Of a DNA stretch of 63,801 nucleotides, positions 39,131-63,801 are shown in pieces (the first letter of the stretch is position 1; the number at the start of each line of letters is the position of its first letter). Below the pieces are notes generated by a model that saw nothing but the letters and a program-made list of their open reading frames with translations, did not search any database and was not told where the DNA came from. Both the position numbers and the translations under genes were made by a program. Origin of the DNA: Eledone cirrhosa. Taxonomy: Eukaryota. Location of the stretch: NCBI GenBank assembly GCA_964016885.1, contig OZ024740.1, forward strand, positions 228,656,001-228,719,801, given 5' to 3'.

Positions 39131-42100
39131 TATTGGTGGTACTGATAGTGGTAGATATAGTGGTGGTATTGGTGGTAGTAATAGTGGTAGTACAGTGGTA
39201 GTATTGGTGGTAGTAATAGTGGTAGGTATAGTGGTGGTATTAGTGGTAGTAATAGTGGTAGTATAGTGGTGGTATTAGTGGTAGTAATAGTGGTAGGTAT
39301 AGTGGTGGTATTGGTGGTAGTAATAGTGGTAGTATAGTGGTGGTATTAGTGGTAGTAATAGTGGTAGGTATAGTGGTGGTATTAGTGGTAGGTATAGTGG
39401 TAGTATAGTGGTGGTATTAGTGGTAGGTATAGTGGTGGTATTGGTGGTAGTAATAGTGGTAGGTATAGTGGTGGTATTAGTGGTAGTAATAGTGGTAGGT
39501 ATAGTGGTGGTATTAGTGGTAGTATAGTGGTGGTATTAGTGGTGGTATTGGTGGTAGTAATAGTGGTAGGTATAGTGGTGGTAGTAGTGGTAGTAATAGT
39601 GGGGTATTAGTGGTAGTAATAGTGGTAGGTATAGTGGTGGTATTAGTGGTAGTAATAGTGGTAGGTATAGTGGTGGTATTGGTGGTGGTATTGGTGGTAG
39701 TAATAGTGGTAGGTATAGTGGTGGTAGTAGTGGTAGTAATAGTGGTAGGTATAGTGGTGGTATTAGTGGTAGGTATAGTGGTAGTATAGTGGTGGTATTG
39801 GTGGTAGTAATAGTGGTAGGTATAGTGGTGGTAGTAGTGGTAGGTATAGTGGTAGGTATAGTGGTGGTATTAGTGGTAGTAATAGTGGTAGGTATAGTGG
39901 TGGGTAATGGTGGTAGTAATAGTGGTAGGTATAGTGGTGGTATTAGTGGTAGATATAGTGGTGGTATTAGTGGTAGGTATAGTGGTAGTATAGTGGTGGT
40001 ATGGTGGTAGTAATAGTGGTAGGTATAGTGGTGGTATTGGTGGTAGTAATATGGTAGGTATAGTGGTGGTATTAGTGGTAGTAATAGTGGTAGGTATAGT
40101 GGTGGTATTAGTGGTAGTATTAGTGGTAGTATAGTGGTGGTATTAGTGTTAGGTATAGTGGTGGTATTAGTGGTAGTATTAGTGGTAGTATAGTGGTGGT
40201 AATAGTGGTAGGTATAGTGGTGGTATTAGTGGTAGGTATAGTGGTGGTATTAGTGGTAGTAATAGTGGTAGGTATAGTGGTGGTATTAGTGGTGGTATTA
40301 GTGGTAGTAATAGTAGTAGGTATAGTGGTGGTATTAGTGGTGGTAATAGTGGTAGGTATAGTGGTGGTATTAGTGGTAGGTATAGTGGTGGTATTAGTGG
40401 TAGTAATAGTGGTAGGTATAGTGGTGGTATTAGTGATAGGTATTAGTGGTAGTAATAGTGGTAGATATAGTGGTGGTATTAGTGGTAGTAATAGTGGTAG
40501 GTATAGTGGTGGTATTAGTGGTAGTAATAGTGGTAGGTATAGTGGTGGTATTAGTGGTAGTAATAGTGGTAGATATAGTGGTGGTATTAGTGGTAGTAAT
40601 AGTGGTAGGTATAGTGGTGGTATTAGTGGTAGTAATAGTGGTAGGTATAGTGGTGGTATTAGTGGTAGTAATAGTGGTAGGTATAGTGGTGGTATTAGTG
40701 GTAGTAATAGTGGTAGATATAGTGGTAGTATTGGTGGTAGTAATAGTGGTAGGTATAGTGGTGGTATTAGTGGTAGTAATAGTGGTAGGTATAGTGGTGG
40801 TATTAGTGGTAGTAATAGTGGTAGGTATAGTGGTGGTATTAGTGGTAGTAATAGTGGTAGGTATAGTGGTGGTATTAGTGGTAGTATTAGTGGTAGGTAT
40901 AGTGGTGGTATTAGTGGTAGTAATAGTGGTAGGTATAGTGGTGGTATTAGTGGTAGTAATAGTGGTAGGTATAGTGGTGGTATTAGTGGTAGTAATAGTG
41001 GTAGATATAGTGGTAGTATTGGTGGTAGTAATAGTGGTAGGTATAGTGGTGGTATTAGTGGTAGTAATAGTGGTAGGTATAGTGGTGGTATTAGTGGTAG
41101 TAATAGTGGTAGGTATAGTGGTGGTATTAGTGGTAGTAATAGTGGTAGGTATAGTGGTGGTATTAGTGGTGGTATTAGTGGTAGGTATAGTGGTGGTATT
41201 AGTGGTAGTAATAGTGGTAGGTATAGTGGTGGTATTAGTGGTAGTAATAGTGGTAGATATAGTGGTAGTATTGGTGGTAGTAATAGTGGTAGGTATAGTG
41301 GTGGTATTAGTGGTAGTAATAGTGGTAGGTATAGTGGTGGTATTAGTGGTAGTAATAGTGGTAGGTATAGTGGTGGTATTAGTGGTGGTATTAGTGGTAG
41401 GTATAGTGGTGGTATTAGTGGTAGTAATAGTGGTAGGTATAGTGGTGGTATTAGTGGTAGTAATAGTGGTAGATATAGTGGTGGTATTAGTGGTAGTATT
41501 AGTGGTAGGTATAGTGGTGGTATTAGTGGTAGTAATAGTGGTAGGTATAGTGGTGGTATTAGTGGTAGTAATAGTGGTAGTATAGTGGTGGTATTAGTGG
41601 TAGTAATAGTGGTAGTATAGTGGTGGTATTAGTGGTAGGTATAGTGGTAGTATAGTGGTAGGTATAGTGGTGGTATTAGTGGTGGTATTAGTGGTAGGTA
41701 TAGTGGTGGTATTAGTGGTAGTAATAGTGGTAGATATAGTGGTGGTATTAGTGGTAGTAATAGTGGTAGGTATAGTGGTGGTATTAGTGGTAGGTATAGT
41801 GGTAGTATAGTGGTGGTATTAGTGGTAGTAATAGTGGTAGGTATAGTGGTGGTATTAGTGGTAGTAATAGTGGTAGGTATAGTGGTGGTATTAGTGGTAG
41901 GTATAGTGGTGGTATTGGTGGTAGTAATAGTGGTAGGTATAGTGGTGGTATTAGTGGTAGTAATAGTGGTAGGTATAGTGGTGGTATTAGTGGTAGGTAT
42001 AGTGGTAGTATAGTGGTAGGTATAGTGGTGGTATTAGTGGTAGTATTAGTGGTAGGTATAATGGTGGTGTAGTGGTAGTAATAGTGGTAGGTATAGTGGT

Positions 42101-45100
42101 GGTATTAGTGGTAGTAATAGTGGTAGGTATAGTGGTGGTATTAGTGGTAGTAATAGTGGTAGGTATAGTGGTGGTATTAGTGGTAGTAATAGTGGTAGTT
42201 ATAGTGGTGGTATTAGTGGTAGTAATAGTGGTAGGTATAGTGGTGGTATTAGTGGTAGTAATAGTGGTAGGTATAGTGGTGGTATTAGTGGTAGTAATAG
42301 TGGTAGGTATAGTGGTGGTATTAGTGGTAGGTACAGTGGTGGTATTAGTGGTAGTAATAGTGGTAGGTATAGTGGTGGTATTAGTGGTAGGTACAGTGGT
42401 GGTATTAGTGGTAGGTATAGTGGTAGGTATAGTGGTGGTATTAGTGGTAGTAATAGTGGTAGGTATAGTGGTGGTATTAGTGGTAGGTAATAGTGGTAGG
42501 TATAGTGGTGGTATTAGTGGATAGTATTAGTGGTAGGTATAGTGGTGGTATTAGTGGTAGGTATAGTGGTAGGTATAGTGGTGGTATTGGTGGTAGTAAT
42601 AGTGGTAGTATAGTGGTAGGTATAGTGGTGGTATGGTGGTAGTAATATGGTAGGTATAGTGGTGGTAATAGTGGTAGGTATAGTGGTGGTATTAGTGGTA
42701 GGTATAGTGGTGGTATTGGTGGTAGTAATAGTGGTAGTAATAGCTGGTGGTATTAGTGGTAGTTATAGTGGTAGGTATAGTGGTGGTATTAGTGGTAGTA
42801 ATAGTGGTAGGTATAGTGGTGGTATTAGTGGTAGGTATAGTGGTGTATTAGTGGTAGGTATAGTGGTGGTATTAGTGGTAGTAATAGTGGTAGGTATAGT
42901 GGTGGTATTAGTGGTGGTATTAGTGGTAGGTATAATGGTGGTATTAGTGGTGGTATTAGTGGTAGGTATAGTGGTGGTATTAGTGGTAGTAATAGTGGTA
43001 GGTATAGTGGTGGTATTAGTGGTAGTATTAGTGGTAGGTATAATGGTGGTATTAGTGGTGGTATTAGTGGTAGGTATAATGGTGGTATTAGTGGTAGTAA
43101 TAGTGGTAGGTATAGTGGTGGTATTAGTGGTGGTAATAGTGGTAGGTATAGTGGTGGTATTAGTGGTAGTATTAGTGGTAGGTATAATGGTGGTATTAGT
43201 GGTGGTATTAGTGGTAGGTATAGTGGTGGTATTAGTGGTAGTAATAGTGGTAGGTATAGTGGTGGTATTAGTGGTAGTAATAGTGGTAGGTATAGTGGTA
43301 GTATTAGTGGTGGTAATAGTGGTAGGTATAGTGGTGGTATTAGTGGTAGTATTAGTGGTAGGTATAATGGTGGTATTAGTGGTGGTATTAGTGGTAGGTA
43401 TAGTGGTAGTATTAGTGGTGGTATTAGTGGTAGGTATAGTGGTGGGATTAGTGGTAGTAATAGTGGTAGGTATAGTGGTGGTATTAGTGGTGGTATTAGT
43501 GGTAGGTATAATGGTGGTATTGGTGGTGGTATTAGTGGTAGGTATAATGGTGGTATTAGTGGTAGTAATAAGTGGTAGGTATAGTGGTGGTATTAGTGGT
43601 AGTATTAGTGGTAGGTATAATGGTGGTATTAGTGGTGGTATTAGTGGTAGGTATAATGGTGGTATTAGTGGTAGTAATAGTGGTAGGTATAGTGGTGGTA
43701 TTAGTGGTAGTAATAGTGGTAGGTATAGTGGTGGTATTAGTGGTGGTAATAGTGGTAGGTATAGTGGTGGTATTAGTGGTAGTATTAGTGGTAGGTATAA
43801 TGGTGGTATTAGTGGTGGTATTAGTGGTAGGTGTAATGGTGGTATTAGTGGTAGTAATAGTGGTAGGTACAGTGGTGGTATTAGTGGTAGTAATAGTGGT
43901 AGGTATAGTGGTAGTATTAGTGGTGGTAATAGTGGTAGGTATAGTGGTGGTATTAGTGGTAGTATTAGTGGTAGGTATAATGGTGGTATTAGTGGTGGTA
44001 TTAGTGGTAGGTATAGTGGTAGTATTAGTGGTGGTATTAGTGGTAGGTATAGTGGTGGGATTAGTGGTAGTAATAGTGGTAGGTATAGTGGTGGTATTAG
44101 TGGTAGGTATAGTGGTAGGTACAGTGGTGGTATTAGTGGTAGGTATAGTGGTAGGTATAGTGGTGGTATAGTGGTGGTATTAGTGGTAGGTATAGTGGTG
44201 GTATTAGTGGTAGTAATAGTGGTAGGTATAGTGGTAGTATTAGTGGTGGTAATAGTGGTAGGTATAGTGGTGGTATTAGTGGTAGGTATAAGTGGTAGGT
44301 ATAGTGGTGGTATTGGTGGTAGTAATAGTGGTAGGTATAGTGGTGGTATTAGTGGTAGTAATAGTGGTAGGTATAGTGGTGGTATTAGTGGTAGGTATAG
44401 TGGTGGTATTAGTGGTAGTTATAGTGGTAGGTATAGTGGTGGTATTAGTGGTAGTAATAGTGGTAGGTATAGTGATGGTATTAATGGTAGGTATAGTGGT
44501 GGTATTAGTGGTAGGTATAGTGGTGGTATTAGTGGTAGGTATAGTGGTAGGTATAGTGGTAGGTATAGTGGTGGTATTAGTGGTAGGTATAGTGGTAGGT
44601 ATAGTGGTAGGTATTAGTGGTGGTAATAGTGGTAGTATAGTGGTGGTATTAGTGGTAGTATAGTGGTGGTATTAGTGGTAGGTATAGTGGTGGTATTAGT
44701 GGTAGTAATAGTGGTAGTAATAGTGGTGGTATTAGTGGTAGTAATAGTGGTGGTATTAGTGGTGGTAATAGTGGTAGTAATAGTGGTGGTATTAGTGGTA
44801 GGTATAGTGGTGGTGTTAGTGGTAGGTATAGTGGTAGTAATAGTGGTAGGTATAGTGGTGGTATTAGTGGTAGTAATAGTGGTAGTAATAGTGGTGGTAT
44901 TAGTGGTAGGTATAGTGGTGGTGTTAGTGGTAGGTATAGTGGTAGTAATAGTGGTAGGTATAGTGGTGGTATTAGTGGTAGGTATAGTGGTAGGTATAGT
45001 GGTGGTATTAGTGGTAGTAATAGTGGTAGGTATAGTGGTGGTATTAGTGGTAGGTATAGTGGTGGTATTAGTGGTAGTATTAGTGGTAGGTATAGTGGTG

Positions 45101-48100
45101 GTATTAGTGGTAGGTATAGTGGTAGTAATAGTGGTGGTATTAGTGGTAGGTATAGTGGTGGTGTTAGTGGTAGGTATAGTGGTAGTAATAGTGGTAGGTA
45201 TAGTGGTGGTATTAGTGGTAGGTATAGTGGTGGTATTAGTGGTAGTAATAGTGGTAGTAATAGTGGTGGTATTAGTGGTAGGTATAGTGGTGGTGTTAGT
45301 GGTAGGTATAGTGGTAGTAATAGTGGTAGGTATAGTGGTGGTATTAGTGGTAGGTATAGTGGTAGGTATAGTGGTGGTATTAGTGGTAGGTATAGTGGTG
45401 GTATTAGTGGTAGTATTAGTGGTAGGTATAGTGGTAGTATTAGTGGTAGGTATAGTGGTAGGTATAGTGGTGGTATTAGTGGTAGGTATAGTGGTAGGTA
45501 TAGTGGTGGTATTAGTGGTAGTGATAGTGGTAGGTATAGTGGTGGTATTAGTGGTAGGTATAGTGGTGGTATTAGTGGTAGGTATAGTGGTGGTGTAGTG
45601 GTAGTAATAGTGGTAGGTATAGTGGTGGTATTAGTGGTAGGTATAGTGGTAGGTATAGTGGTGGTGTAGTGGTAGTAATAGTGGTAGGTATAGTGGTGGT
45701 ATTAGTGGTAGGTATAGTGGTAGGTATAGTGGTGGTGTAGTGGTAGTATTAGTGGTAGGTATAGTGGTGGTATTAGTGGTAGCTATTAGTGGTAGGTATA
45801 ATGGTGGTATTAGTGGTAGTATTAGTGGTAGGTATAGTGGTGTGTAGTGGTAGTAATAGTGGTAGGTATAGTGGTGGTATTAGTGGTAGGTATAGTGGTA
45901 GGTATAGTGGTGGTATTAGTGGTAGTAATAGTGGTAGGTACAGTGGTGGTATTAGTGGTAGGTATAGTGGTGGTATTAGTGGTAGTAATAGTGGTAGGTA
46001 TAGTGGTGGTATTAGTGGTAGTATTAGTGGTAGGTATAGTGGTGGTATTAGTGGTAGTAATAGTGGTAGGTATAGTGGTGGTATTAGTGGTAGTAATAGT
46101 GGTAGGTATAGTGGTGGTATTAGTGGTAGTATTAGTGGTAGGTATAGTGGTAGGTATAGTGGTGGTGTAGTGGTAGTATTAGTGGTAGGTATAGTGGTGG
46201 TGTAGTGGTAGTAATAGTGGTAGTAATAGTGTTAGGTATAGTGGTGGTATTAGTGGTAGTAATAGTGGTAGGTATAGTGGCTGGTATTAGTGGTAGGTAT
46301 AGTGGTAGGTATAGTGGTGGTATTAGTGGTAGTATTAGTGGTAGGTATAATGGTGGTGTAGTGGTAGTAATAGTGGTAGGTATAGTGGTGGTATTAGTGG
46401 TAGTAATAGTGGTAGGTATAGTGGTGGTATTAGTGGTAGTAATAGTGGTAGGTATAGTGGTAGGTATAGTGGTGGTATTAGTGGTAGTATTAGTGGTAGG
46501 TATAGTGGTGGTATTAGTGGTAGGTATAGTGGTAGGTATAGTGGTGGTATTAGTGGTAGTATTAGTGGTAGGTATAGTGGTGGTATTAGTGGTAGTAATA
46601 GTGGTAGGTATAGTGGTGGTATTAGTGGTAGTAATAGTGGTAGGTATAGTGGTGGTATTAGTGGTAGGTACAGTGGTGGTATTAGTGGTAGTAATAGTGG
46701 TAGGTATAGTGGTGGTATTAGTGGTAGGTACAGTGGTGGTATTAGTGGTAGGTATAGTGGTAGGTATAGTGGTGGTGTAGTGGTAGTAATAGTGGTAGGT
46801 ATAGTGGTGGTATTAGTGGTGGTAATAGTGGTAGGTATAGTGGTGGTATTAGTGGTAGTATTAGTGGTAGGTATAGTGGTGGTATTAGTGGTAGGTATAG
46901 TGGTGGTATTGGTGGTGGTATTAGTGGTAGGTATAGTGGTAGGTATAGTGGTGGTATTAGTGGTAGGTACAGTGGTGGTATTAGTGGTAGTAATAGTGGT
47001 AGTAATAGTGGTAGGTATAGTGGTGGTATTGGTGGTAGTAATATGGTAGGTATAGTGGTGGTAATAGTGGTAGTAATAGTGGTAGGTATAGTGGTGGTAT
47101 TGGTGGTAGTAATAGTGGTAGTATAGTGGTGGTATTAGTGGTAGTTATAGTGGTAGGTATAGTGGTGGTATAGTGGTAGTAATAGTGGTAGGTATAGTGG
47201 TGGTATTAGTGGTAGGTATAGTGGTGGTATTAGTGGTAGGTATAGTGGTGGTATTAGTGGTAGTAATAGTGGTAGGTATAGTGGTGGTATTAGTGGTAGT
47301 ATTAGTGGTAGGTATAATGGTGGTATTAGTGGTGGTATTAGTGGTAGGTATAATGGTGGTATTAGTGGTAGTAATAGTGGTAGGTATAGTGGTGGTATTA
47401 GTGGTGGTAATAGTGGTAGGTATAGTGGTGGTATTAGTGGTAGTAATAGTGGTAGGTATAGTGGTGGTATTAGTGGTAGTAATAGTGGTAGGTATAGTGG
47501 TGGTATTAGTGGTAGTAATAGTGGTAGGTACAGTGGTGGTATTAGTGGTAGTAATAGTGGTAGGTATAGTGGTAGTATTAGTGGTGGTAATAGTGGTAGG
47601 TATAGTGGTGGTATTAGTGGCTAGTAATAGTGGTAGGTATAGTGGTGGTATTCAGTGGTAGTATTAGTGGTAGGTATAATGGTGGTATTAGTGGTGGTAT
47701 TAGTGGTAGGTATAATGGTGGTATTAGTGGTAGTAATAGTGGTAGGTATAGTGGTGGTATTAGTGGTGGTAATAGTGGTAGGTATAGTGGTGGGATTAGT
47801 GGTAGTAATAGTGGTAGGTATAGTGGTGGTATTAGTGGTAGGTATAGTGGTAGGTACAGTGGTGGTATTAGTGGTAGGTATAGTGGTAGGTATAGTGGTG
47901 GTATAGTGGTGGTATTAGTGGTAGGTATAGTGGTGGTATTAGTGGTAGTAATAGTGGTAGGTATAGTGGTAGTATTAGTGGTGGTAATAGTGGTAGGTAT
48001 AGTGGTGGTATTAGTGGTAGGTATAGTGGTGGTATTAGTGGTGGTAATAGTGGTAGGTATAGTGGTGGTATTAGTGGTAGGTATAGTGGTAGGTATAGTG

Positions 48101-50460
48101 GTGGTATTGGTGGTAGTAATAGTGGTAGGTATAGTGGTGGTATTAGTGGTAGTAATAGTGGTAGGTATAGTGGTGGTATTAGTGGTAGGTATAGTGGTGG
48201 TATTAGTGGTAGTTATAGTGGTAGGTATAGTGGTGGTATTAGTGGTAGGTATAGTGGTGGTATTAGTGGTAGTAATAGTGGTAGGTATAGTGATGGTATT
48301 AATGGTAGGTATAGTGGTGGTATTAGTGGTAGGTATAGTGGTGGTATTAGTGGTAGGTATAGTGGTAGGTATAGTGGTAGGTATAGTGGTGGTATTAGTG
48401 GTAGGTATAGTGGTAGGTATAGTGGTGGTATTAGTGGTAGGTAATAGTGGTAGTATAGTGGTGGTATTAGTGGTGGTAATAGTGGTAGGTATAGTGGTGG
48501 TATTAGTGGTAGGTATAGTGGTGGTATTAGTGGTAGGTATAGTGGTGGTATTAGTGGTAGTAATAGTGGTAGTAATAGTGGTGGTATTAGTGGTAGGTAT
48601 AGTGGTGGTATTAGTGGTGGTAATAGTGGTAGTATAGTGGTGGTATTAGTGGTAGGTATAGTGGTGGTATTAGTGGTAGTAATAGTGGTAGTCAATAGTG
48701 GTGGTATTAGTGGTAGGTATAGTGGTGGTGTTAGTGGTAGGTATAGTGGTAGTAATAGTGGTAGGTATAGTGGTGGTATTAGTGGTAGGTATAGTGGTGG
48801 TATTAGTGGTAGTAATAGTGGTAGTAATAGTGGTAGGTATTAGTGGTAGGTATAGTGGTAGTAATAGTGGTAGGTATAGTGGTGGTATTAGTGGTAGGTA
48901 TAGTGGTAGGTATAGTGGTGGTATTAGTGGTAGGTATAGTGGTGGTATTAGTGGTAGTATTAGTGGTAGGTATAGTGGTGGTATTAGTGGTAGGTATAGT
49001 GGTAGTAATAGTGGTGGTATTAGTGGTAGTATAGTGGTGGTGTTAGTGGTAGGTATAGTGGTAGTAATAGTGGTAGGTATAGTGGTGGTATTAGTGGTAG
49101 GTATAGTGGTGGTATTAGTGGTAGTAATAGTGGTAGTAATAGTGGTGGTATTAGTGGTAGGTATAGTGGTGGTGTTAGTGGTAGGTATAGTGGTAGTATT
49201 AGTGGTAGGTATAGTGGTGGTGTTAGTGGTAGGTTATAGTGGTAGGTATAGTGGTAGGTATAGTGGTGGTATTAGTGGTAGGTATAGTGGTGGTATTAGT
49301 GGTAGTATTAGTGGTAGGTATAGTGGTAGTATTAGTGGTAGGTATAGTGGTAGGTATAGTGGTGGTAATAGTGGTAGGTATAGTGGTGGTATTAGTGGTA
49401 GTATTAGTGGTAGGTATAGTGGTGGTATTAGTGGTAGTGATAGTGGTAGGTATAGTGGTGGTATTAGTGGTAGGTATAGTGGTGGTATTAGTGGTAGGTA
49501 TAGTGGTGGTGTAGTGGTAGTAATAGTGGTAGGTATAGTGGTGGTATTAGTGGTAGGTATAGTGGTAGGTATAGTGGTGGTGTAGTGGTAGTAATAGTGG
49601 TAGGTATAGTGGTGGTATTAGTGGTAGGTATAGTGGTAGGTATAGTGGTGGTGTAGTGGTAGTATTAGTGGTAGGTATAGTGGTGGTATTAGTGGTAGTA
49701 TTAGTGGTAGGTATAATGGTGGTATTAGTGGTAGTATTAGTGGTAGGTATAGTGGTGGTGTAGTGGTAGTAATAGTGGTAGGTATAGTGGTGGTATTAGT
49801 GGTAGGTATAGTGGTAGGTATAGTGGTGGTATTAGTGGTAGTAATAGTGGTAGGTACAGTGGTGGTATTAGTGGTAGGTATAGTGGTGGTATTAGTGGTA
49901 GTAATAGTGGTAGGTATAGTGGTGGTATTAGTGGTAGTATTAGTGGTAGGTATAGTGGTGGTATTAGTGGTAGTAATAGTGGTAGGTATAGTGGTGGTAT
50001 TAGTGGTAGTAATAGTGGTAGGTATAGTGGTGGTATTAGTGGTAGTATTAGTGGTAGGTATAGTGGTAGGTATAGTGGTGGTGTAGTGGTAGTATTAGTG
50101 GTAGGTATAGTGGTGGTATTAGTGGTAGGTATAGTGGTAGGTATAGTGGTGGTGTAGTGGTAGTAATAGTGGTAGGTATAGTGGTGGTATTAGTGGTAGG
50201 TATAGTGGTAGGTATAGTGGTGGTGTAGTGGTAGTAATAGTGGTAGGTATAGTGGTGGTATTAGTGGTAGTATTAGTGGTAGGTATAGTGGTGGTATTAG
50301 TGGTAGTATTAGTGGTAGGTATAGTGGTAGGTATAGTGGTGGTGTAGTGGTAGTATTAGTGGTAGGTATAGTGGTGGTATTAGTGGTAGTATTAGTGGTA
50401 GGTATAGTGGTGGTATTAGTGGTAGTATTAGTGGTAGGTATAGTGGTGGTATTAGTGGTA
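39131..50460 (+). repeat. 12-bp-unit satellite with a preferred 36-bp trimer TAGTGGTAGGTA-TAGTGGTGGTAT-TAGTGGTAGTAA (left arm of palindrome)
   Basis: Read directly. The strand is almost free of C, and the units are shuffled in variable order. Confidence 0.97.
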
Positions 50461-51687
50461 GGTATGAGTGGTAGGTAGAGTGGTGGTATTAGTGGTTGTA
50501 TAGTGGGAGGTATAGTGGTGGTATTAGTGGTAGTAATAGTGGTAGGTATAGTGGTGGTATTGGTGGTAGTAATAGTGGTAGGTATAGTGGGTGGTATTAG
50601 TGGGTAGGTATTGGGGTAGGTTTAGTGGTGGTATTATGGTAGGATAGAATGGGTAGGTATAGTGGTGGGTATTGTGGTTGGTAGTGGGTAGGTAGGGGTG
50701 GTTGGTGGTGGGGGTGGATTGTGGGGTGTATAGTGGGTAGGTAGTGTGGTGGTAGTGGGGGGAGTTGTGGTGGAGTAGGGGTGGTATGGGGGTGGTAGAG
50801 GGGGAGGTAGAGGGGGTGGGTGTGGGGGTGGTTGTGGGTGGTGGTGATGGAGGTGGTGGGGTGGGTGGTAGTGGTGGTGTGGGGTGGGAGTGGTGGTTGT
50901 GTGGGTGGTGGAGTTGTGGTGGGGGTGGGTGTGGGGTGGTATGGGGGAGGTTGGGGTGGGTTTGTGGGGGGTGGTGTGGTGGTAGTGGGTGGTAGGTGGG
51001 AGGGTTTGGGGTGTAGAGGGGTGGTGAGGGTGAGGGTTGGTGGTTGGTAGTGGTGGGGAGGGGGGGTGTGGGGGGGGGTGGTGGGGGTGGGTGTGGGGGT
51101 GGAGAGGGGGGGGTGGGGTGGGATAGGGGGGGGTGGTGGGGGTGGTAGTGGGGTGGTTGTGGGGGTGGGTGAGGGGGTGGGTGTGGGGGGGGTGGTGGGG
51201 GTGGTTGTGGGGTGGGTGGTGGGGGGGTGGAGGGGGTGGTTGTGGGGGTGGGTGTGGGGGGGGTGGTGGGGGTGGTTGTGGGGGTGGAGTGGGGGAGGTG
51301 GTGGGGGGGGTGGTGGGGGTGGGTGTGGGGGGGGTGGTGGGGGTGGTTGTGGGGGTGGGTGGTGGGGGGGGTGGTGGGGGTGGGTGTGGGGGTGGGTGTG
51401 GGGGGGGTGGTGGGGGTGGTGGTGGGGGTGGGTGTTGGGGGGGTGGTGGGGGTGGGTGTGGGGGGGGTGGTGGGGGTGGTTGTGGGGGTGGTGGTGGGGG
51501 GGGTGGTGGGGGTGGGTGTGGGGGGGGTGGTGGGGGTGGTTGTGGGGGTGGGTGTGGGGGGGGTGTGGGGGTGGTTGTGGGGGTGGGTGTGGGGGGGGTG
51601 GTGGGGGTGGTTGTGGGGGCTGGGTGTGGGGGGGGTGGTGGGGGTGGTTGTGGGGGTGGGTGTGGGGGGGGTGGTGGGGGTGGTTGT
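50461..51687 (+). other. G-rich tract that is the same 12/36-bp array under the substitution A>T, T>G, G>G (probable base-calling artefact)
   Basis: Applying the substitution to the trimer gives GTGGGGGTGGGT-GTGGGGGGGGTG-GTGGGGGTGGTT, which is the unit seen at ~51200-51687. Onset is gradual and noisy from ~50460. Confidence 0.85.
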
Positions 51688-54600
51688 AATAACTAGTGTA
51701 AGTAATAGTGGTAGTAATAGTTGTAATAATAGTGTAAGTAATAGTGGTAGTAATAGTTGTAATAATAGTGTAAGTAATAGTGGTAGTAATAGTTGTAATA
51801 ATAGTGTAAGTAATAGTTGTAATAATAGTTGTAGTAATAGTGGTAGTAATAGTTGTAATAATAGTGTAAGTAATAGTTGTAATAATGGTGTAAGTAATAG
51901 TTGTAGTAATAGTTGTAATAATAGTGTAAGTAATAGTGTTAGTAATAGTTGTAATAATAGTTGTAAGTAATAGTGGTAGTAATAGTTGTAATAATAGTGT
52001 AAGTAATAGTTGTAATAATAGTTGTAGTAATAGTGTAAGTAATAGTGGTAGTAATAGTTGTAATAATAGTGTAAGTAATAGTGGTAGTAATAGTTGTAAT
52101 AATAGTTGTAAGTAATAGTGGTAGTAATAGTTGTAATAATAGTGTAAGTAATAGTGTAAGTAATAGTGGTAGTAATAGTGGTAGTAATAGTTGTAATAAT
52201 AGGGTAAGTAATAGTTGTAATAATAGTGTAAGTAATAGTGTAAGTAATAGTTGTAATAATAATTGTAATAATAGTGTAAGTAATAGTGGTAGTAATAATT
52301 GTAAGTAATAGTGTAAGTAATAGTGGTAGTAATAGTGGTAATAATAGTGTAAGTAATAGTTGTAGTAATAGTATAATAATAGTGTAAGTAATAGTGTAAG
52401 TAATAGTGTTAGTAATAGTGTAAGTAATAGTTGTAATAATAGTGTAGTAATAGTGGTAGTAATAGTTGTAATAATAGTGTAGTAATAGTGGTAGTAATAA
52501 TTGTAATAATAGTGTAAGTAATGTGGTAGTAATAATTGTAATAATAGTGTAAGTAATAGTGGTAGTAATAGTGGTAATAATAGTGTAAGTAATGTGGTAG
52601 TAATAATTGTAATAATAGTGTAAGTAATAGTGTAGTAATAGTGGTAGTAATAATTGTAAACTAGTGTAAGTAATAGTGGTAGTAATAGTTGTAATAATAG
52701 TGTAAGTAATGGTGGTCGTAATGGTTGTAATAATAGTGTAAGTAATAGTGTAAGTAATAGTTGTAATAATAGTGTAGTAATAGTGGTAGTAATAATTGTA
52801 ATAATAGTGTAAGTAATAGTGGTAGTAATAGTTGTAATAATAGTGTAAGTACTAGTGGTAGTAATAGTTGTAATAATAGTGTAAGTAATAGTGTAAGTAA
52901 TAGTTGTAATAATAGTGTAAGTAATAGTTGTAGTAATAGTTGTAATAATAGTGTAAGTAATAGTTGTAGTAATAGTTGTAATAATAGTGTAAGTAATAGT
53001 TGTAGTAATAGTATAATAATAGTGTAAGTAATAGTGTAAGTAATAGTTGTAGTAATAGTTGTAATAATAGTGTAAGTAATAGTTGTAGTAATAGTTGTAA
53101 TAATAGTGTAAGTAATAGTGGTAGTAATAGTATAATAATAGTGTAAGTAATAGTGTAAGTAATAGTTGTAATAATAGTGTAAGTAATAGTGGTAGTAATA
53201 GTATAATAATAGTGTAAGTACTAGTGTAAGTAATAGTTGTAATAATAGTGTAAGTAATAGTTGTAGTACTAGTATAATAATAGTGTAAGTAATAGTGTAA
53301 GTAATAGTTGTAGTAATAGTTGTAATAATAGTGTAAGTAATAGTGGTAGTAATAGTTGTAATAATAGTGTAAGTAATAGTGGTAGTAATAGTTGGTAATA
53401 ATAGTGTAAGTAATAGTTGTAGTAATAGTTGTAATAATAGTGTAAGTAATAGTGGTAGTAATAGTTGTAATAATAGTGTAAGTAATAGTTGTAATAATAG
53501 GGTAAGTAATAGTGGTAGTAATAGTTGTAATAATAGTGTAAGTAATAGTGTAAGTAATAGTTGTAATAATAGTGTAAGTAATAGTGGTAGTAATAGTATA
53601 ATAATAGTGTAAGTAATAGTTGTAGTAATAGTTGTAATAATGGTGTAAGTAATAGTTGTAGTAATAGTTGTAATAATAGTGTAAGTAATAGTTGTAGTAA
53701 TAGTATAATAATAGTGTAAGTAATAGTGTAAGTAATAGTTGTAATAATAGTGTAAGTAATAGTGGTAGTAATAGTATAATAATAGTGTAAGTAATAGTGT
53801 AAGTAATAGTTGTAATAATAGTGTAAGTAATAGTGGTAGTAATAGTATAATAATAGTGTAAGTAATAGTTGTAATACATAGTGTAAGTAATAGTTGTAAT
53901 AATAGTGTAAGTAATAGTGATAGTAATAGTTGTAATAATAGTGTAAGTAATAGTTGTAGTAATAGTTGTACATAATAGTGTAAGTAATAGTTGTAATAAT
54001 AGTGTAAGTAATAGTGTAAGTAATAGTTGTAGTAATAGTGTAAGTAATAGTTGTAGTACTAGTTGTAATAATAGTGTAAGTAATAGTTGTAATACTAGTG
54101 TAAGTAATAGTGTAAGTAATAGTGTAAGTAATAGTTATAATAATAGTGTAAGTAATAGTTGTAGTAATAGTGTAAGTAATAGTTATAATAATAGTGTACG
54201 TAATAGTTGTAATAATAGTGGTAGTAATAGTGGTAGTAATAGTTGTAATAATAGTGTAAGTAATAGTTGTAATAATAGTGTAAGTAATAGTGGTAGTAAT
54301 AGTGTAAGTACTAGTTATAATAATAGTGTAAGTAATAGTTGTACATAATAGTGGTAGTAATAGTGTAAGTAATAGTTGTAATAATAGTGTAAGTAATAGT
54401 TGTAGTAATAGTTGTAATAATAGTGTAAGTAATAGTTGTAATAATAAGTGTAAGTAATAGTGTAAGTAATAGTTGTAATAATAGTGTAAGTAATAGTGGT
54501 AGTAATAGTGTAAGTAATAGTTGTAAGTAATAGTGGTAGTAATAGTGGTAGTAATAGTTGTAATAATAGTGTAAGTAATAGTTGTAATAATAGTGTAAGT

Positions 54601-57600
54601 AATAGTGGTAGTAATAGTGTAAGTAATAGTTATAATAATAGTGTAAGTAATAGTTGTAATAATAGTGGTAGTAATAGTGGTAGTAATAGTTGTAATAATA
54701 GTGTAAGTAATAGTTGTAATAATAGTGTAGTAAATAGTGGTAATAATAGTTGTACTAATAGGTGTAAGTAATAGTTGTAATAATAGTGGTAGTAATAGTG
54801 GTAGTAATAGTTGTAATAATAAGTGTAAGTAATAGTTGTAATAATAGTGTAAGTAATAGTTGTAATAACTAGTGTAAGTAATAGTGGTAATAATAGTTGT
54901 AATAATAGTGTAGTAATAGTGGTAATAATAGTTGTAATAATAGTGTAAGTAATAGTGTAAGTAATAGTTGTAATAATAGTGTAAGTAATAGTGTAAGTAC
55001 TAGTGTAAGTAATCGTTGTAATAATAGTGTAAGTAATAGTTGTAATAATAGTGTAAGTAATGGTTGTAATGATAGTGTAAGTAATAGTGGTAGTAATAGT
55101 TGTAATAATAGTGTAAGTAATAGTTGTAATAATAGTGTAAGTAATAGTGTTAGTAATAGTTGTAATAATAGTGTAAGTAATAGTTGTAATCATAGTGGTA
55201 AGTAATAGTGGTAGTAATAGTTGTAATAATAGTGTAAGTAATAGTGGTAGTAATAATTGTAATAATAGTGTAAGTAATAGTGTAAGTAATAGTTGTAATA
55301 ATAGTGTAAGTAATAGTGGTAATAATAGTTGTAATACATAGTGTAAGTAATAGTTGTAATAATAGTGTAAGTAACTAGTGGTAATAATAGTTGTAGTAAT
55401 CGTGTAAGTACATAGTGGTAGTAATAGTTGTAATAATAGTGTAAGTAATAGTTGTAATAATAGTGTAATAATAGTGTAAGTAATAGTGTAAGTAATAGTT
55501 GTAATAATAGGGTAAGTAATAGTGTAAGTAATAGTTGTAATAATAGTGTAAGTAATAGTGGTAGTAATAGTTGAAATAATAGTGTAAGTAATAGTGGTAA
55601 TAATAGTTGTAATAATAGTGTAAGTAATAGTGGTAAGGTAATAGTTGTAATACTGGTGTAAGTAATAGTTGTAATAATAGTTGTACATAATGGTGTAAGT
55701 AATAGTTGTAGTAATAGTTGTAATAATAGTGTAAGTAATAGTGTAGTAATAGTTGTATAATAGTGTAAGTAATAGTGGTAATAATAGTTGTAGTAATAGT
55801 GTAAGTAATAGTGGTAGTAATAGTTGTAATAATAGGGTAAGTAATAGTGGTAGTAATAGTTGTAATAATAGTGTAAGTAATAGTGGTAGTAATAGTTGTA
55901 ATAATAGTGTAAGTAATAGTGGTAGTAATAGTTGTAATAATAGTGTAAGTAATAGTGGTAATAATAGTTGTAATAATAGTGTAAGTCATAGTGTAGTAAT
56001 AGTTGTAATAATGGTGTAAGTAATAGTTGTAATAATAGTTGTAATAATGGTGTAAGTAATAGTTGTAGTAATAGTTGTAATAATAGTGTCAGTAATAGTG
56101 GTAGTAATGTTGTAATAATAGTGTAAGTAATAGTTGTAATAATAGTGTAAGTAATAGTTGTAATAATAGTGTAAGTAATAGTGGTAGTAATAGTTGTAAT
56201 AATAGTGTAAGTAATAGTGTTAGTAATAGTTGTAATAATAGTGTAGTAATAGTGGTAGTAATAATTGTAATAATAGTGTAAGTAATAGTGGTAGTAATAG
56301 TGGTAATAATAGTGTCAGTAATGTGGTAGTAATAATTGTAATAATAGTGTAAGTAATAGTGGTAGTAATAGTGGTAGTAATAGTTGTAATCAATAGGGTA
56401 AGTAATAGTTGTAATAATAGTGTAAGTAATAGTGTAAGTAATAGTTGTAATAATAATTGTAATAATAGTGTAAGTAATAGTTGTAATAATAGTGTAAGTA
56501 ATAGTTGTAGTAATAGTTGTAATAAATAGTGTAAGTAATAGTGGTAATAATAGTTGTAATAATAGTGTAAGTAATAGTGGTAGTAATAGTATAATAATAG
56601 TGTAAGTAATAAGTGTAAGCTAATAGTTGTAATAATAGGGTAAGTAATAGTTGTACTAATAGTGTAAGTAATAGTGGTAGTAATAGTTGTATAATAGGGT
56701 ACAGTAATAGTTGTAATAATAGGTGTAAGTAATAGTGGTAGTAATAGTTGTAATAATAGTGTAAGTAATAGTGGTAGTAATAGTTGTAATAATAGTGTAA
56801 GTAATAGTTGTAGTAATAGTTGTAATAATAGTGTAAGTAATAGTGTAAGTAATAGTTGTAATAATAGTGTAAGTAATAGTTGTAGTAATAGTTGTAATAA
56901 TAGTGTAAGTAATAGTGTAAGTAATAGTGGTAGTAATAGTTGTAATAATAGTGTAAGTAATAGTGGTAGTAATAGTTGTAATAATAGTGTAAGTAAATAG
57001 TGGGTAGTAATAGTATAATAATGGTGTAAGTAATAGTTGTAGTAATAGTTGTAATAATAGTGTAAGTAATAGTGTAAGTAATAGTTGTAATAATAGTGTA
57101 AGTAATAGTGGTAGTAATAGTTGTAATAATAGTGTAAGTTATAGTGGTAGTAATAGTGGTAGTACTAGTATAATAATAGTGTAAGTAATAGTTGTAGTAA
57201 AGTATAATAATATAGTGTAAGTAATAGTGTAAGTAATAGTTGTAGTAATAGTTGTAATAATAGTGTAAGTAATAGTGGTAGTAATAGTTGTAATAATAGT
57301 GTAAGTAATAGTGGTAGTAATAGTTGTAATAATAAGTGTAAGTAATAGTTGTAGTAATAGTTGTACTAATAGTGTAAGTAATAGTGGTAGTAATAGTTGT
57401 AATAATAGTGTACAGTAATAGTTGTAATAATAGGGTAAGTAATAGTGGTAGTAATAGTTGTAATAATAGTGTAAGTAATAGTGTAAGTAATAGTTGTAAT
57501 AATAGTGTAAGTAATAGTGGTAGTAATAGTATAATAATAGTGTAAGTAATAGTTGTAGTAATAGTTGTAATAATGGTGTAAGTAATAGTTGTAGTAATAG

Positions 57601-60600
57601 TTGTAATAATAGTGTAAGTAATAGTTGTAGTAATAGTATAATAATAGTGATAAGTAATAGTGTAAGTAATAGTTGTAATAATAGTGTAAGTAATAGTGAG
57701 TAAGTAATAGTATAATAATAGTGTAAGTAATAGTGTAAGTAATAGTTGTACTAATAGTGTAGTAATAGTGGTAGTAATAGTATAATAATAGGTGTAAGTA
57801 ATAGTTGTAATAATAGTGTAAGTAATAGTTGTAATAATAGTGTAAGTAATAGTGATAGTAATAGTTGTAATAATAGTGTAAGTAATAGTGTAAGTAATAG
57901 TTGTAATAATAGTGTAAGTAATAGTGTAAGTAATAGTTGTAGTAATAGTGTAAGTAATAGTTGTAGTAACTAGTTGTAATAATAGTGTAAGTAATAGTTG
58001 TAATAATAGTGTAAGTAATAGTGTAAGTAATAGTTGTAATAATAGTGTAAGTAATAGTGGTAGTAATAGTGTAAGTAATAGTTATAATAATAGTGTAAGT
58101 AATAGTTGTAATAATAGTGGTAGTAATAGTGGTAGTAATAGTTGTAATAATAGTGTAAGTAATAGTTGTAATAATAGTGTAAGTAATAGTGGTAGTAATA
58201 GTGTAAGTAATAGTTATAATAATAGTGTAAGTAATAGTTGTACATAATAGTGGTAGTAATAGTGTAAGTAATAGTTGTAATAATAGTGTAAGTAATAGTT
58301 GTAGTAATAGTTGTAATAATAGTGTAAGTAATAGTTGTAATAATAGTGTAAGTAATCGTGGTAGTAATAGTTGTACATATAGTGTAAGTAATAGTGTAAG
58401 TAATAGTTGTAATAATAGTGTAAGTAATAGTGGTAGTAATAGTGTAAGTAATAGTTATAATAATAGTGTAAGTAATAGTTGTAATAATAGTGGTAGTAAT
58501 AGTGGTAGTAATAGTTGTAATACATAGTGTCAAGTAATAGTGGTAGTACTAGTGTAAGTAATAGTTATAATAATAGTGTAAGTAATAGTTGTAATAATAG
58601 TGGTAGTAATAGTGGTAATAATAGCTTGTAATAATAGTGGTAGTAATAGTTGTAATAATAGTGGTAGTCAATAGTGGTAGTAATAGTTGTAATAATAGTG
58701 TAAGTAATAGTTGTAATAATAGTGTAAGTAATAGTTGTAATAATAGTGTAGTAATAGTGGTAATAATAGTTGTAATAATAGGTGTAAGTAATAGTGTAAG
58801 TAATAGTAGTAAATAATAGTGTAAGTAATAGCTGTAAGTAATAAGTGTAAGTAATAGTTGTAATAATAGTGTAAGTAATAGTTGTAATAATAGTGTAGTA
58901 CTGGTTGTAATGATAGTGTAAGTAATAGTGGTAGTAATAGTTGTAATAATAGTGTAAGTAATAGTGTTAGTAATAGTTGTAATAATAAGTGTAAGTAATA
59001 GTTGTAATAATAGTGTAAGTAATAGTGGTAGTAATAGTTGTAATAATAGTGTAAGTAATAGTGGTAGTAATAATTGGTCATAATAGTGTAAGTAATAGTG
59101 TAAGCTAATAGTTGTAATAATAGTGTAAGTAATAGTGGTAATAATAGTTGTAGTAATAGTGTAAGTAATAGTGGTAGTAATAGTTGTAATAATAGTGTAC
59201 GTAATAGTTGTAATAATAGTGTAATAATAGTGTAAGTAATAGTGTAAGTAATAGTTGTAATAATCGGGTAAGTAATAGTGTAAGTACTAGTTGTAATCAA
59301 TAGTGTAAGTAATAGTGGTAGTAATAGTTGACAATAATAGTGTAAGTAATAGTTGTAATAATAGTTGTAGTAATAGTGTAAGTAATAGTTGTAATAATAG
59401 TTGTAATAATGGTGTAAGTAATAGTTGTAGTAATAGTTGTAATAACTAGTGTAAGTAATAGTGGTAATAATAGTTGTAGTAATAGTGTAAGTACTAGTGG
59501 TAGTAATAGTTGTAATAATCGGGTAAGTAATAGTGGTAGTAATAGTTGTAATAATGGTGTAAGTCATAGTTGTAATCATAGTTGTAAATAATGGTGTAAG
59601 TAATAGTTGTAGTAATAGTTGTAATAATAGTGTAAGTAATAGTGGTAATAATAGTTGTAATAATAGTGTAAGTAATCGTGGTAGTAACTAGTTGTAATAA
59701 TAGTGTAAGTAATCGTGGTAGTAATAGTTGTAATAATGGTGTAAGTACTAGTTGTAATAATAGTTGTAATAATGGTGTAAGTAATAGTTGTAGTAATAGT
59801 TGTAATACATAGTGTAAGTAATAGTGGTAGTAATAGTTGTAATAATGGAGTAAGTAATCGTTGTAATAATAATTGTAATAATGGTGTAAGTAATAGTTGT
59901 ACTAATAGTTGTAATAATAGTGTAAGTAATAGTGGTAGTAATAGTTGACATATAGGTAAGTAATAGTTGTAATAATAGTTGTAGTAATAGTGTAAGTAAT
60001 AGTTGTAATCATAGTTGTAATAATGGTGTAAGTAATAGTTGTAGTAATAGTTGTAATAATAGTGTAAGTAATAGTGGTAATAATAGTTGTAGTAATAGTG
60101 TAAGTAATAGTGGTAGTAATAGTTGTAATAATAGTGTAAGTAATAGTGGTAGTCATAGTTGTACTAATAGTGTAAGTAATAGTTGTAATAATAGTTGTAA
60201 TAATGGTGTAAGTAAATAGTTGTAGTAATAGTTGTAATAATAGTGTAAGTAATAGTGGTAGTAATAGTTGTAATAATAGTGTAAGTAATAGTGGTAGTAA
60301 TAGTTGTAATCATGGTGTAAGTAATAGTTGTAATAATAGTTGTAATAATGGTGTACAGTAATAGTTGTAGTAATAGTTGTAATAATAGTGTAAGTAATAG
60401 TGGTAGTCATAGTTGTATAATAGTGTAAGTAATAGTTGTAATAATCGTTGTAATAATGGTGTAAGTAATAGTTGTAATACTAGTTGTAATAATAGTGTCA
60501 GTAATAGTGGTAGTAATAGTTGTAATAATAAGTGTAAGTAATAGTTGTAATAATAGTGTAAGTAATAGTTGTAATAATCGTGTAAGTAATAGTGGTAGTA

Positions 60601-61815
60601 ATAGTTGTAATAATAGTGTAAGTAATAGTGTTAGTAATAGTTGTAATAATAGTGTAGTAATAGTGGTAGTAATAATTGTAATAATAGTGTAAGTAATAGT
60701 AGTACTAATAGTGTAAGTAATAGTGGTAATAATCGTGTAAGTAATGTGGTAGTAATAATTGTAATACTAAGTGTAAGTAATAGTGGTAGTAATATTGAAG
60801 TACTAATTGTATAAGTACTAAGTAAGTGGTAAGTAATAGTTGTAATAATAGTGTAAGTAATAGTTGTACGTACTAGTTGTACTAATAGTGTAAGTAATCG
60901 TGGTAATACATAGTTGTAATACATAGTGTAAGTAATAGTGGTAGTACATAGTATAACTAATAGTGTAAGTAATAGTGTCAGTATAGTTGTACACTAATAG
61001 GGTAAGTACTAGTTGTAATCATAGTGTAAGTACTAGTGGTAGTAATAGTTGTAATAATAGGGTAACGTAATAGTTGTAATAATAGTGTAAGTCACTAGTG
61101 GTAGTAATCGTTGTACATAATAGTGTAAGTACATAGTGGTAGTAATAGTTGTAATAATAGTGTAACGTAATAGTGGTAGTATAGTTGTAATCATAGTGTG
61201 AGTAATAGTGGTAGTACATACGTTGTAATCATAGTGTAAGTAATAGTGGTAGTACATAGTGTAATAATAGTGTAAGTCACTAGTGGTAGTAATAGTTGTA
61301 ATAAATAGTGTACGTAATAGTGGTAGTACTAGTATAATCATGTGTCAGTAATCGTAGTAGTACAAGTTGTAACTAATAGTGTACGGTACCTAGTGTAGTA
61401 ATAGTGTCAGTACTCGTTGTAATACATAGTGTAAGTAATAGTGGTAGTACTCGTTGTACATAATAGTGTAAGTCAATAGTGGTAGTAACTAATTGTAACT
61501 ATAGTGTAAGTAATAGTTGTAATAATAGTGTAAGTAATAGTGGTAGTAATAGTTGTCATACTAGTGTACGTACTAGTGGTAGTACTAGTTGTACATAATA
61601 GTGCTGGTCATAGTGTAAGTACTAGTTGTCATAATCGTGTAGTAATAGAGGTAGTCAACTCGTTGTCCTCATAGTGTGAGTCATAGTGGTCGTAATCGTG
61701 TAATAATCAGTGTACAGTAATCGTAGTACTACATAGTTGTAACTAACTAGTTCAACTAGTGAGTACTAGTGTAAGTAACCTCGTTGTACTCACTATTGTA
61801 GTAAAGTGGTAGTAC
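51688..61815 (-). other. Apparent (TAGTGGTAGTAA-TAGTTGTAATAA-TAGTGTAAGTAA)n array that is the reverse complement of ~41.6-51.7 kb under C>A, A>T, T>G, G>G
   Basis: Unit order and rare variants mirror the left arm at coordinate sums of ~103,360 (see findings). Confidence 0.88.
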
Positions 61816-63801
61816 ACTAATACCACCACTATATCTACCACTATTACTACCTACTAATACCCACCACTATACTACCACTAATTACTACCACTAATACCAC
61901 CACTATACCTACCACTATTCTCACACTAATACACCACTATACCTACCACTATACTACACTATATACCACCACTATAACTACCACTATTACTACCACTAAT
62001 ACCACCACTATACCTACCCACTAATACTACCACTAATACCACCACATATACCTACCACTAGTCCGACCACTAATACCACCACTATACTACCACTATTACT
62101 ACCACTTAATACCACCACTATACCTACCACTATTACTACACACTAATACCACCATCTATACCTACACTATTACTACCACTAATACATACCACTATACCTA
62201 CCACTATTACTACCACTAATACCACCACTATACCTACCACTAATACTACCACTAATACCACCACTTATACCTACCACTATTACTACCACTAATACCACCA
62301 CTATACCTACCACTATTACTACCACTAATACCACCACTATACCTACCACTATTACTACCACTAATACACCACTATACCTACCACTATTACTACCACCAAT
62401 ACTACCACTATACTACACTATTACTACCACAATACACCACTATACCTACCACTATTACTACACTAATACCACCACTATACCTACACTATTACTACCACTA
62501 ATACCACCACTATACCTACCACTATTACTACACTCTAATACCACCACTATACCTACCACTATTACTACCACTAATACCACCACTATACCTACTACCACTA
62601 TTACTAACCACTAATACCACCACTATACCTACCACTATTACTACCACTAATACCACCACTATACCTACCACTATTACTACCACTAATACACCACTATATC
62701 TACCACTATTACTACCACTAATACCACCACTATACCTACCACTATTACTACCACTAATACCACCACTATACCTACCACTATTACTACCACTAATACCACC
62801 ACTATACCTACCACTATTACTACCACTAATACCACCACTATACCTACCACTATTACTACCACCTAATACCACCACTATACCTACCACTATTACTACCACT
62901 AATACCACCACTATACCTACCACTATTACTACCACTAATACCACCACTATATCTACCACTATTACTACCACTAATACCACCACTATACCTACCACTATTA
63001 CTACCACTAATACCACCACTATACCTACCACTAATACCAACCACTATACCTACCACTATTACCACCACTAATACCACCACTATACCTACTACTATTACTA
63101 CCACTAATACCACCACTAATACACCACTATACCTACCACTATTACTACCACTAATACCACCACTATACCTACCACTAATACCACCACTATACCTACCACT
63201 ATTACCACCACTATACTACCACTAATACTACCACTAATACCACCACTATACCTAACACTAATACCACCACTATACTACCACTAATACTACCACTAATACC
63301 ACCACTATACCTACCACTATTACTACCACTAATACCACCACTATACCTACCATATTACTACCACCAATACCACCACTATACCTACCACTATTACTACCAC
63401 CAATACCACCACTATACTACCACTATACCTACCACTAATACCACCACTATATCTACCACTAATACCACCACTATACCTACCACTATTACTACCACCATTA
63501 CCACCACTATACCTACCACTATTACTACCACTAATACCACCACTATACCTACCACTATACCTACCACTACTACCACCACTATACCTACCACTATTACTAC
63601 CACCAATACCACCACTATACTACCACTATACCTACCACTAATACCACCACTATACCTACCACTATTACTACCCACTACTACCACCACTATACCTACCACT
63701 ATTACTACCACCAATACCACCACCAATACCACCACTATACCTACCACTATTACTACACTAATACCACCACTATACCTACCACTATTACTACCACTAATAC
63801 C
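61816..63801 (-). repeat. Plain reverse-complement copy of ~39603-41590 (right arm of palindrome, runs off the window)
   Basis: The window end is the reverse complement of sequence starting at 39603. Diagnostic variants pair up: TAGTGTTAGG 40144 / CCTAACACTA 63251, AGTAATATGG ~40045 / CCATATTACT ~63350, TAGTAGTAGG 40311 / CCTACTACTA 63085. Confidence 0.96.

Follow-up and report, generated by a model that had tools for sequence, protein, structure and literature searches.

Near the right end of a 63,801-nt stretch of the Eledone cirrhosa assembly (contig OZ024740.1, positions 228,656,001 to 228,719,801, forward strand; the whole stretch is called the window here), three repeat tracts follow one another: a satellite written almost without C, a G-rich tract, and an AGTAAT-type array that runs to position 61815. 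The question that this locus raises is whether the second and third tracts are satellites in their own right. An earlier note, made from the letters alone, held that both are copies of the first tract under a single per-base substitution, as in a cipher, and favoured faulty base calling as their source. We find that the 11-kb "satellite" is almost certainly an artefact of some kind and not real DNA. We further consider it quite probable that it comes from a hairpin read of the neighbouring repeat, in which single-colour base calling of the PacBio HiFi type slipped by one rung along its ladder of signal levels. Coordinates are those of the window; positions in the sequence that continues it (L001) are given as ext, that is, 63801 plus the L001 position.

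The plain left arm (39124 to 50460, plus strand) is a real satellite of G, T and A with a period of 36/12, built of 12-nt monomers within a 36-nt unit and containing 20 C in 11.4 kb. We scored all 256 letter maps in two orientations by the number of 20-mers found. As had been claimed, a single map explains both the G-rich tract and the array: A>T, C>A, G>G and T>G recovers 77% and 79% of 20-mers in the two tracts. Three maps that are altered only at the letter absent from the strand score nearly the same, and the best map beyond these variants recovers 3.9% and 7.1%. The map is one step along the order C, A, T, G, saturating at one end.

When the array (51688 to 61815, plus strand) is decoded with A>C, T>A and G>T and then reverse-complemented, it is colinear with 41599-50700, giving 8908 matches, 142 mismatches and 153 gaps, each of at most 2 nt, while the mirror centre drifts merely from 51678 to 51705. 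The expectation that all of this span would mirror the plain left arm holds from about 52900 to 61815, whereas 51688-52900 mirrors the G-rich tract and the transition into it. Letter by letter, A in the left arm faces G (2094/2099), T faces T (3299/3312), and G faces A (3515/3628), with C at 101 of the remaining G positions. The rare C of the left arm appears as G at the mirror position in 11/11 aligned cases, confirming the G>G step on the other strand.

Rare variants carry through as well. The five variants that the earlier note had named lie at mirror positions (49853/53495, 49711/53638, 49434/53915, 50148/53199 and 50219/53128), and the order of units at 50100-50290 recurs reversed in the mirror arm. 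A crude motif count found mirror partners for 6/11, 16/19, 2/2 and 14/16 left-arm variants; the count for the first of these motifs is probably too low, as that motif requires a fixed context. Shuffled and non-mirror controls rule out a chance resemblance between two satellites: decoded 53000-57000 is 98.55% identical at the mirror position, compared with 87.7 +/- 0.3% (maximum 88.7%) for 30 unit-shuffled versions and with 89.5% and 89.0% for non-mirror parts of the same satellite. Likewise, 120-mer diagonals give 1114 matches at centres 51675-51700 and at most 104 elsewhere.

The contig ends at the window end (63801) and is followed by a gap of 200 N, beyond which the next contig holds the plain text of both tracts. 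Its start (ext 64002-69005; L001:201-5204) overlaps the left arm at 45445-50452 with 99.78% identity. The two differ at 11 places, and at each of them the decoded right arm supports the next contig, indicating read errors that went uncorrected in the left arm. Further along, decoded 51688-52900 is 99.42% identical to ext 69010-70221, and enciphering ext 69734-70274 (L001:5933-6473) gives 98.34% identity to 51150-51687, which includes the G-rich tract. The next contig passes the position at which the window folds back in plain forward text, with neither inversion nor cipher, an observation at the level of the assembly and not of read counts, and its plain array terminates normally at ext 74122.

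Genome-wide word counts, taken over an assembly of 3.0 Gb and to be read as possible lower bounds, place all of this sequence at one locus. The plain 36-mer has 163 + 14 = 177 matches, every one accounted for here. The ciphered 36-mer has 35 matches, all in 51718-61549 and all in one orientation (35 forward, 0 reverse), the G-rich 38-mer has a single match, at this locus, and 0/4725 ciphered 31-mers are present in the plain arrays. With the plain text of both tracts in the next contig and ciphered words nowhere else in the assembly, the base-calling artefact put forward in the earlier note is well supported. A word search of sequencing runs, made with 464 words sampled from 46000-55999 and without a positive control, listed 24 runs from 22 studies at word shares of 0.06-0.07 each, none at half. 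Because plain words alone make up 29% of the distinct words (45% of positions), no listed run contains even the real satellite.

The genome-wide word counts bear directly on the view that the array is real DNA, either a genuine sister satellite or a mirror copy made by non-Watson-Crick pairing (G-A, A-G and T-T). The sequence does sit in a chromosome-scale assembly. However, the next contig traverses the same position in plain text, and a pairing origin would need separate rules for the array and the G-rich tract, both of which a single ladder shift covers. Apart from C leaks and small indels, the array shows no private variants over 6.1 kb, and it lies at a contig tip with no second copy. A genuine satellite or inverted duplication would be a Watson-Crick copy, or a family with its own variants and copies; this array is neither, because it shares no 31-mers with the plain arrays, has no copy elsewhere and inherits its variants through the cipher. 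We regard a physical origin of the sequence as extremely improbable.

The left edge of the ciphered sequence bears on its cause. The earlier note had all of 50461-61815 enciphered; full encipherment holds for about 51310-61815, whereas 50460-51310 (plus strand) is a mosaic with many deletions, in which the shift builds up by degrees from 0 to 100% and A>T and T>G climb jointly from about 10% to 100%. Counted per 100 nt against the plain text of the next contig, the two rates correlate at r = 0.975 over 10 bins, and their joint fading is as expected from one drifting scale. The substitutions are 208 A>T and 348 T>G, against 4 A>G, 2 T>A, 4 G>A and 8 G>T. Deletion rates per letter carry no weight here, since a deletion within a G run has no assignable letter. 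In the G-rich tract, where the forward satellite is fully ciphered (51310 to 51687, plus strand), G runs have the predicted length in 82/83 cases, among them 10/10 eight-G runs, which correspond to mixed letters in the plain text. The exact run lengths indicate that bases were counted singly as events and were only mislabelled.

Residual errors in the array follow the same pattern. When the next contig is reverse-complemented and enciphered, it matches the array between 51688 and 57850 at 98.96% identity, with 22/22 substitutions being leaks back to C (A>C); the left arm, treated likewise, matches 57851-61600 at 95.97%. Leakage to the true letter occurs at 1-20% of C positions. These error spectra were taken from strict alignments; an either-letter alignment merges C insertions with C leaks. 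A slip along a ladder of signal levels should give a monotone one-step map that saturates at one end, residual errors to the neighbouring rung and two steps that move jointly, and the locus displays each of these (C against G in 11/11 cases, A>C in 22/22, and the correlated rates of the transition).

A per-base and almost exact map would also result from a software or encoding fault in part of a read or contig, for example an offset 2-bit code or an error in the complement table. However, the map found here is many-to-one, as both T and G become G, and it comes with C leaks and an 850-nt fade, where a table error would be all-or-none. We therefore think a fault of this kind very unlikely. Poly-G calling on two-colour short-read instruments is rejected by reasoning, as it can yield neither C>A nor a length of 10 kb.

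The array is also the return arm of a fold-back. The forward cipher matches through 51687 and the reverse cipher matches back to 51683, with no foreign bases between them. The fold-back point (51683 to 51687, plus strand) is thus a 5-nt microhomology, in which plain TAATA can pair with TATTA across a 43-nt loop, and the unpaired loop region lies within the G-rich tract (51636-51687, plus strand). A missed adapter was considered and rejected, as the fold contains no foreign bases. A 5-nt match is present at 0.089% of position pairs, and within 300 nt of a 3' end one is available in 4.4% of cases.

Beyond the array, the end of the reverse-complement arm is unshifted (61816 to 63801, minus strand) and extends to the contig tip as a plain reverse complement. 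Compared with 39603-41633 in the left arm, its identity is 99.2, 96.7, 96.9 and 93.9% in four bins toward 61815, so that accuracy drops on approach to the switch. The last base of the contig, 63801, mirrors 39603, and the roughly 21 kb of plain array contain a single GGGG, at 39601-39604 (plus strand), with none in the array of the next contig. This GGGG looks like a seam at the start of a read, and the contig tip from 39603 to 63801 looks like one hairpin read of 24,199 nt, its start being placed by the seam. The left arm from about 39603 onward is then probably the sequence of the hairpin read itself. The arrangement has the features of a fold-back artefact: the two arms are head-to-head copies of one locus once decoded, the break falls near the centre of a symmetric read (63801 mirrors 39603, with the fold at 51683-51687), and the next contig crosses the site without inversion, again at the level of the assembly.

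On which strand, and in which direction, did the scale move? The one-step, monotone shift along the ladder stands as the earlier note described it, but the shift is more plausibly upward on the minus strand (G>T>A>C, with saturation at C) than downward on the plus strand. Reverse-complementing the ladder C, A, T, G returns the same ladder, so the two shifts give identical letters. The unpaired loop is G-strand on the plus strand, which points to that strand as the physical hairpin; a polymerase copying it would yield the minus strand. On the minus strand the slip would start about 2 kb into the C-less strand and end 0.4-1.2 kb after real C appears. We favour this strand because only there does the cause, the appearance of C, come before the recovery.

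False insertions of the absent letter point the same way. Minus-strand G accounts for 57/96 inserted bases and minus-strand C for 0/21 (Fisher p ~1e-7; tallied by hand from strict alignments), which makes G the dim, noise-catching end of the ladder. Taken together, loop polarity, timing and insertion asymmetry would imply the order C>A>T>G. Single-pass long reads carry far more error than the roughly 1% seen here. The accuracy of about 99% suggests a multi-pass consensus, in which case the slip must recur in most passes; a hairpin template would be read in the same direction in each pass, permitting such recurrence.

Recurrence and timing also weigh on a different account, in which a one-off physical change of signal (polymerase position or bleaching) shifted the plus strand down irrespective of composition, and the fold-back was coincidental or a polymerase template switch. 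Because plus-strand down-shift and minus-strand up-shift produce the same letters, the map data fit this account as well. It requires, however, that the drop began by chance 1.2 kb before the fold-back, that noise was called as the brightest letter and never the dimmest (57/96 versus 0/21), and that about 99% accuracy came from an event that would not repeat across passes. We judge it improbable.

Similarly improbable, in our estimate, is a nanopore fold-back read, in which template and then complement were sequenced and a neural base caller mislabelled a low-complexity signal, as with telomere repeats. Several facts speak for such a read: in the passages of these papers drawn on here, fold-backs are put at 0.55-0.6% in nanopore genomic DNA (PMC12870357), and strand-specific repeat miscalls and phantom satellites are documented for nanopore (10.1101/2022.01.11.475254; 10.64898/2026.07.13.738322). 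The ciphered words at our locus occur in a single orientation, as that account would have it. However, the published nanopore miscalls swap repeats with a similar k-mer current profile, whereas the map here is context-free and keeps single-base variants. Nanopore calling would further have to turn mixed letters into homopolymers of exact length (10/10 eight-G runs) and to drift gradually within a read, and a plus-strand shift would start 1.2 kb before the fold.

The account that we prefer, a hairpin read with a ladder slip on the minus strand, would run as follows. A 12-kb fragment of the satellite G-strand would have folded back on itself, and its 3' TAATA would prime on TATTA 43 nt upstream; fill-in would then give a stem with a natural loop at one end. 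The sequencing polymerase could copy such a hairpin one way only, so that every pass would be the minus strand: G-strand, loop, C-strand. If the caller ranks bases by the level of their signal, with rungs G<T<A<C, the three levels of a C-less strand would fit the ladder equally well one rung up. About 2 kb into the G-strand the scale would slip, with G called T, T called A and A called C, and the slip would persist for 10 kb. Past the fold, where real C appears, C is merged with A, which accounts for the plus-strand G-rich tract that we observe; the shift, as seen in the letters, is complete for about 380 nt past the fold and then fades across about 850 nt. Driven by composition, the slip would return in most passes, and the consensus would retain it at about 99% letter accuracy. 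In the assembly, the contig closes on this sequence and its successor resumes 5 kb back on the true path, as the overlap with the left arm indicates.

Several points count against this account. The account is read from assembly sequence. For the 75 nt that precede the fold, the computed DNA folding energy is only -1.2 kcal/mol, with a 7-nt loop favoured over the observed 43-nt loop; we infer self-priming from the geometry only, and the folding energy gives it no support. A 13-nt block at 40426-40438 is present in the left arm and missing from the reverse-complement arm, a difference that a single molecule does not predict, and may mark a further read seam or a glitch in correction. At 61815 the switch is abrupt, whereas at 50460-51310 it is gradual; we propose multi-pass voting as the explanation. 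"Minus strand, C brightest" and "plus strand, G brightest" are separable only by the loop and timing arguments.

The signal ladder itself belongs among these points. We take calling on PacBio to be single-channel, and we assume for single-colour instruments an amplitude order of C>A>T>G, which the earlier note also gave, with roughly even step ratios. Neither assumption was found stated in the literature searched, a scope that leaves most subscription papers and vendor documents outside. Passages of PMC11610455 and PMC9419648 give no amplitude order, and those of 10.1101/2021.08.31.458403 report four per-base signal-to-noise values with no order stated. PacBio is described as using four dyes in passages of 10.1101/2022.01.11.475254 and PMC9419648. 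In passages of PMC12870357, virtually no fold-back reads are reported for the one HiFi genomic data set tested, compared with the nanopore figure given above, and 10.64898/2026.07.13.738322 describes, in its available passages, nanopore as "uniquely prone" to satellite miscalls and HiFi as concordant with Illumina.

The artefact falls at a contig break and goes together with 18.6 kb of false sequence. The surplus of assembly bases is 18,557 (64002 minus 45445), and a 16.4-kb array is displayed as 35 kb. A 5-kb false duplication spans the 200-N gap, and a direct join of the two contigs would be possible. The array is not a real feature of the genome and tells nothing new about the biology of the organism. 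Its interest lies in genome quality, since HiFi-type reads are what satellite miscalls are judged against as a clean control. A ciphered array of 10 kb that is 99% clean resembles a real satellite, and it would enter repeat libraries and evade alignment-based fold-back filters.

We found no description of a one-step substitution-ladder artefact in the literature searched, within the same scope. Whether the case generalizes is a matter on which we lean slightly toward doubt: single-colour HiFi calling may fail in a composition-triggered way wherever one end letter (C or G) is missing for kilobases, the level model slipping by one rung in most passes and yielding a clean phantom repeat that passes quality filters. 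This reading comes from a single case. If it is true in general, reference assemblies and repeat libraries contain more ciphered satellites, which go unnoticed where no fold-back or neighbouring contig provides the key. Some of the sequence that HiFi coverage seems to lose over three-letter repeats would then be mislabelled and not missing. Screening is possible by decoding, with the map applied to each three-letter array and a search made for its plain twin. The window holds more long C-poor tracts of the (TGG)n type, at 22993-25953 and 37819-39098, and many near-three-letter stretches in this genome are places where the same slip could happen.

The remainder of the window and its surroundings contain other repeats. 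A 38-bp satellite occupies 1-20840 (550 copies, 94% match), and L007 (10 kb upstream) both begins and ends in its unit, so that this array is probably longer than 30 kb. A non-LTR (long terminal repeat) retrotransposon with a broken frame lies on the minus strand at 26591-29640, with endonuclease matches (PF03372, PF14529) in 28729-29640 and a reverse transcriptase match (PF00078) together with a weak PHD-finger match in 26591-27985; its middle frame has no Pfam match. A 30-bp minisatellite (31983-32734; 25 copies, 93% match) and a 42-bp CA-rich compound repeat (35401-37333) follow. Downstream, a second G/T-rich satellite (ext ~81000-98000) contains in its middle a 3.95-kb inverted segment (L003:6350-10000 and L004:1-300; ext ~90150-94100). 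At only about 92% identity to either flank, this segment is not a mirror of its neighbour, and it is either a real inversion or a mis-join.

Known long-read artefacts share parts of this picture, each described here from passages of its source. The closest in kind are the nanopore telomere repeat-calling errors of Tan et al. (10.1101/2022.01.11.475254), where likewise a real repeat is reported as a different repeat in one strand orientation through the assignment of signal to letters. Those errors are swaps between k-mer repeats of similar current on nanopore, with HiFi as the clean control; unlike them, this locus shows a context-free one-step map over about 11 kb that keeps rare variants and run lengths and drifts within a read. 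The false repeat here is strand-specific in the same sense (35 forward, 0 reverse), yet all of it comes from one place, and judged from the per-letter map, without computed current profiles, it is not a context-dependent swap between repeats of similar current. The phantom satellites of Oxford Nanopore Technologies (ONT) data reported by Carvalho, Kim and Uno (10.64898/2026.07.13.738322), in which AAGAC is called as AAAC, are likewise miscalled satellites in an assembly with a strand skew, and a miscalled satellite is expected there to fragment an assembly by breaking overlaps. The passages of that paper contain no substitution ladder ("substitution" occurs 0 times), unlike this locus. Finally, the fold-back artefacts addressed by Breakinator (PMC12870357) are likewise near-perfect reads of forward and reverse-complement sequence with a break near the centre, and they can tangle assemblies; microhomology is not discussed in the passages of that source (0 occurrences). 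Unlike those fold-backs, the return arm here is mostly ciphered, and an alignment-based filter would see only its last 2 kb as reverse complement.

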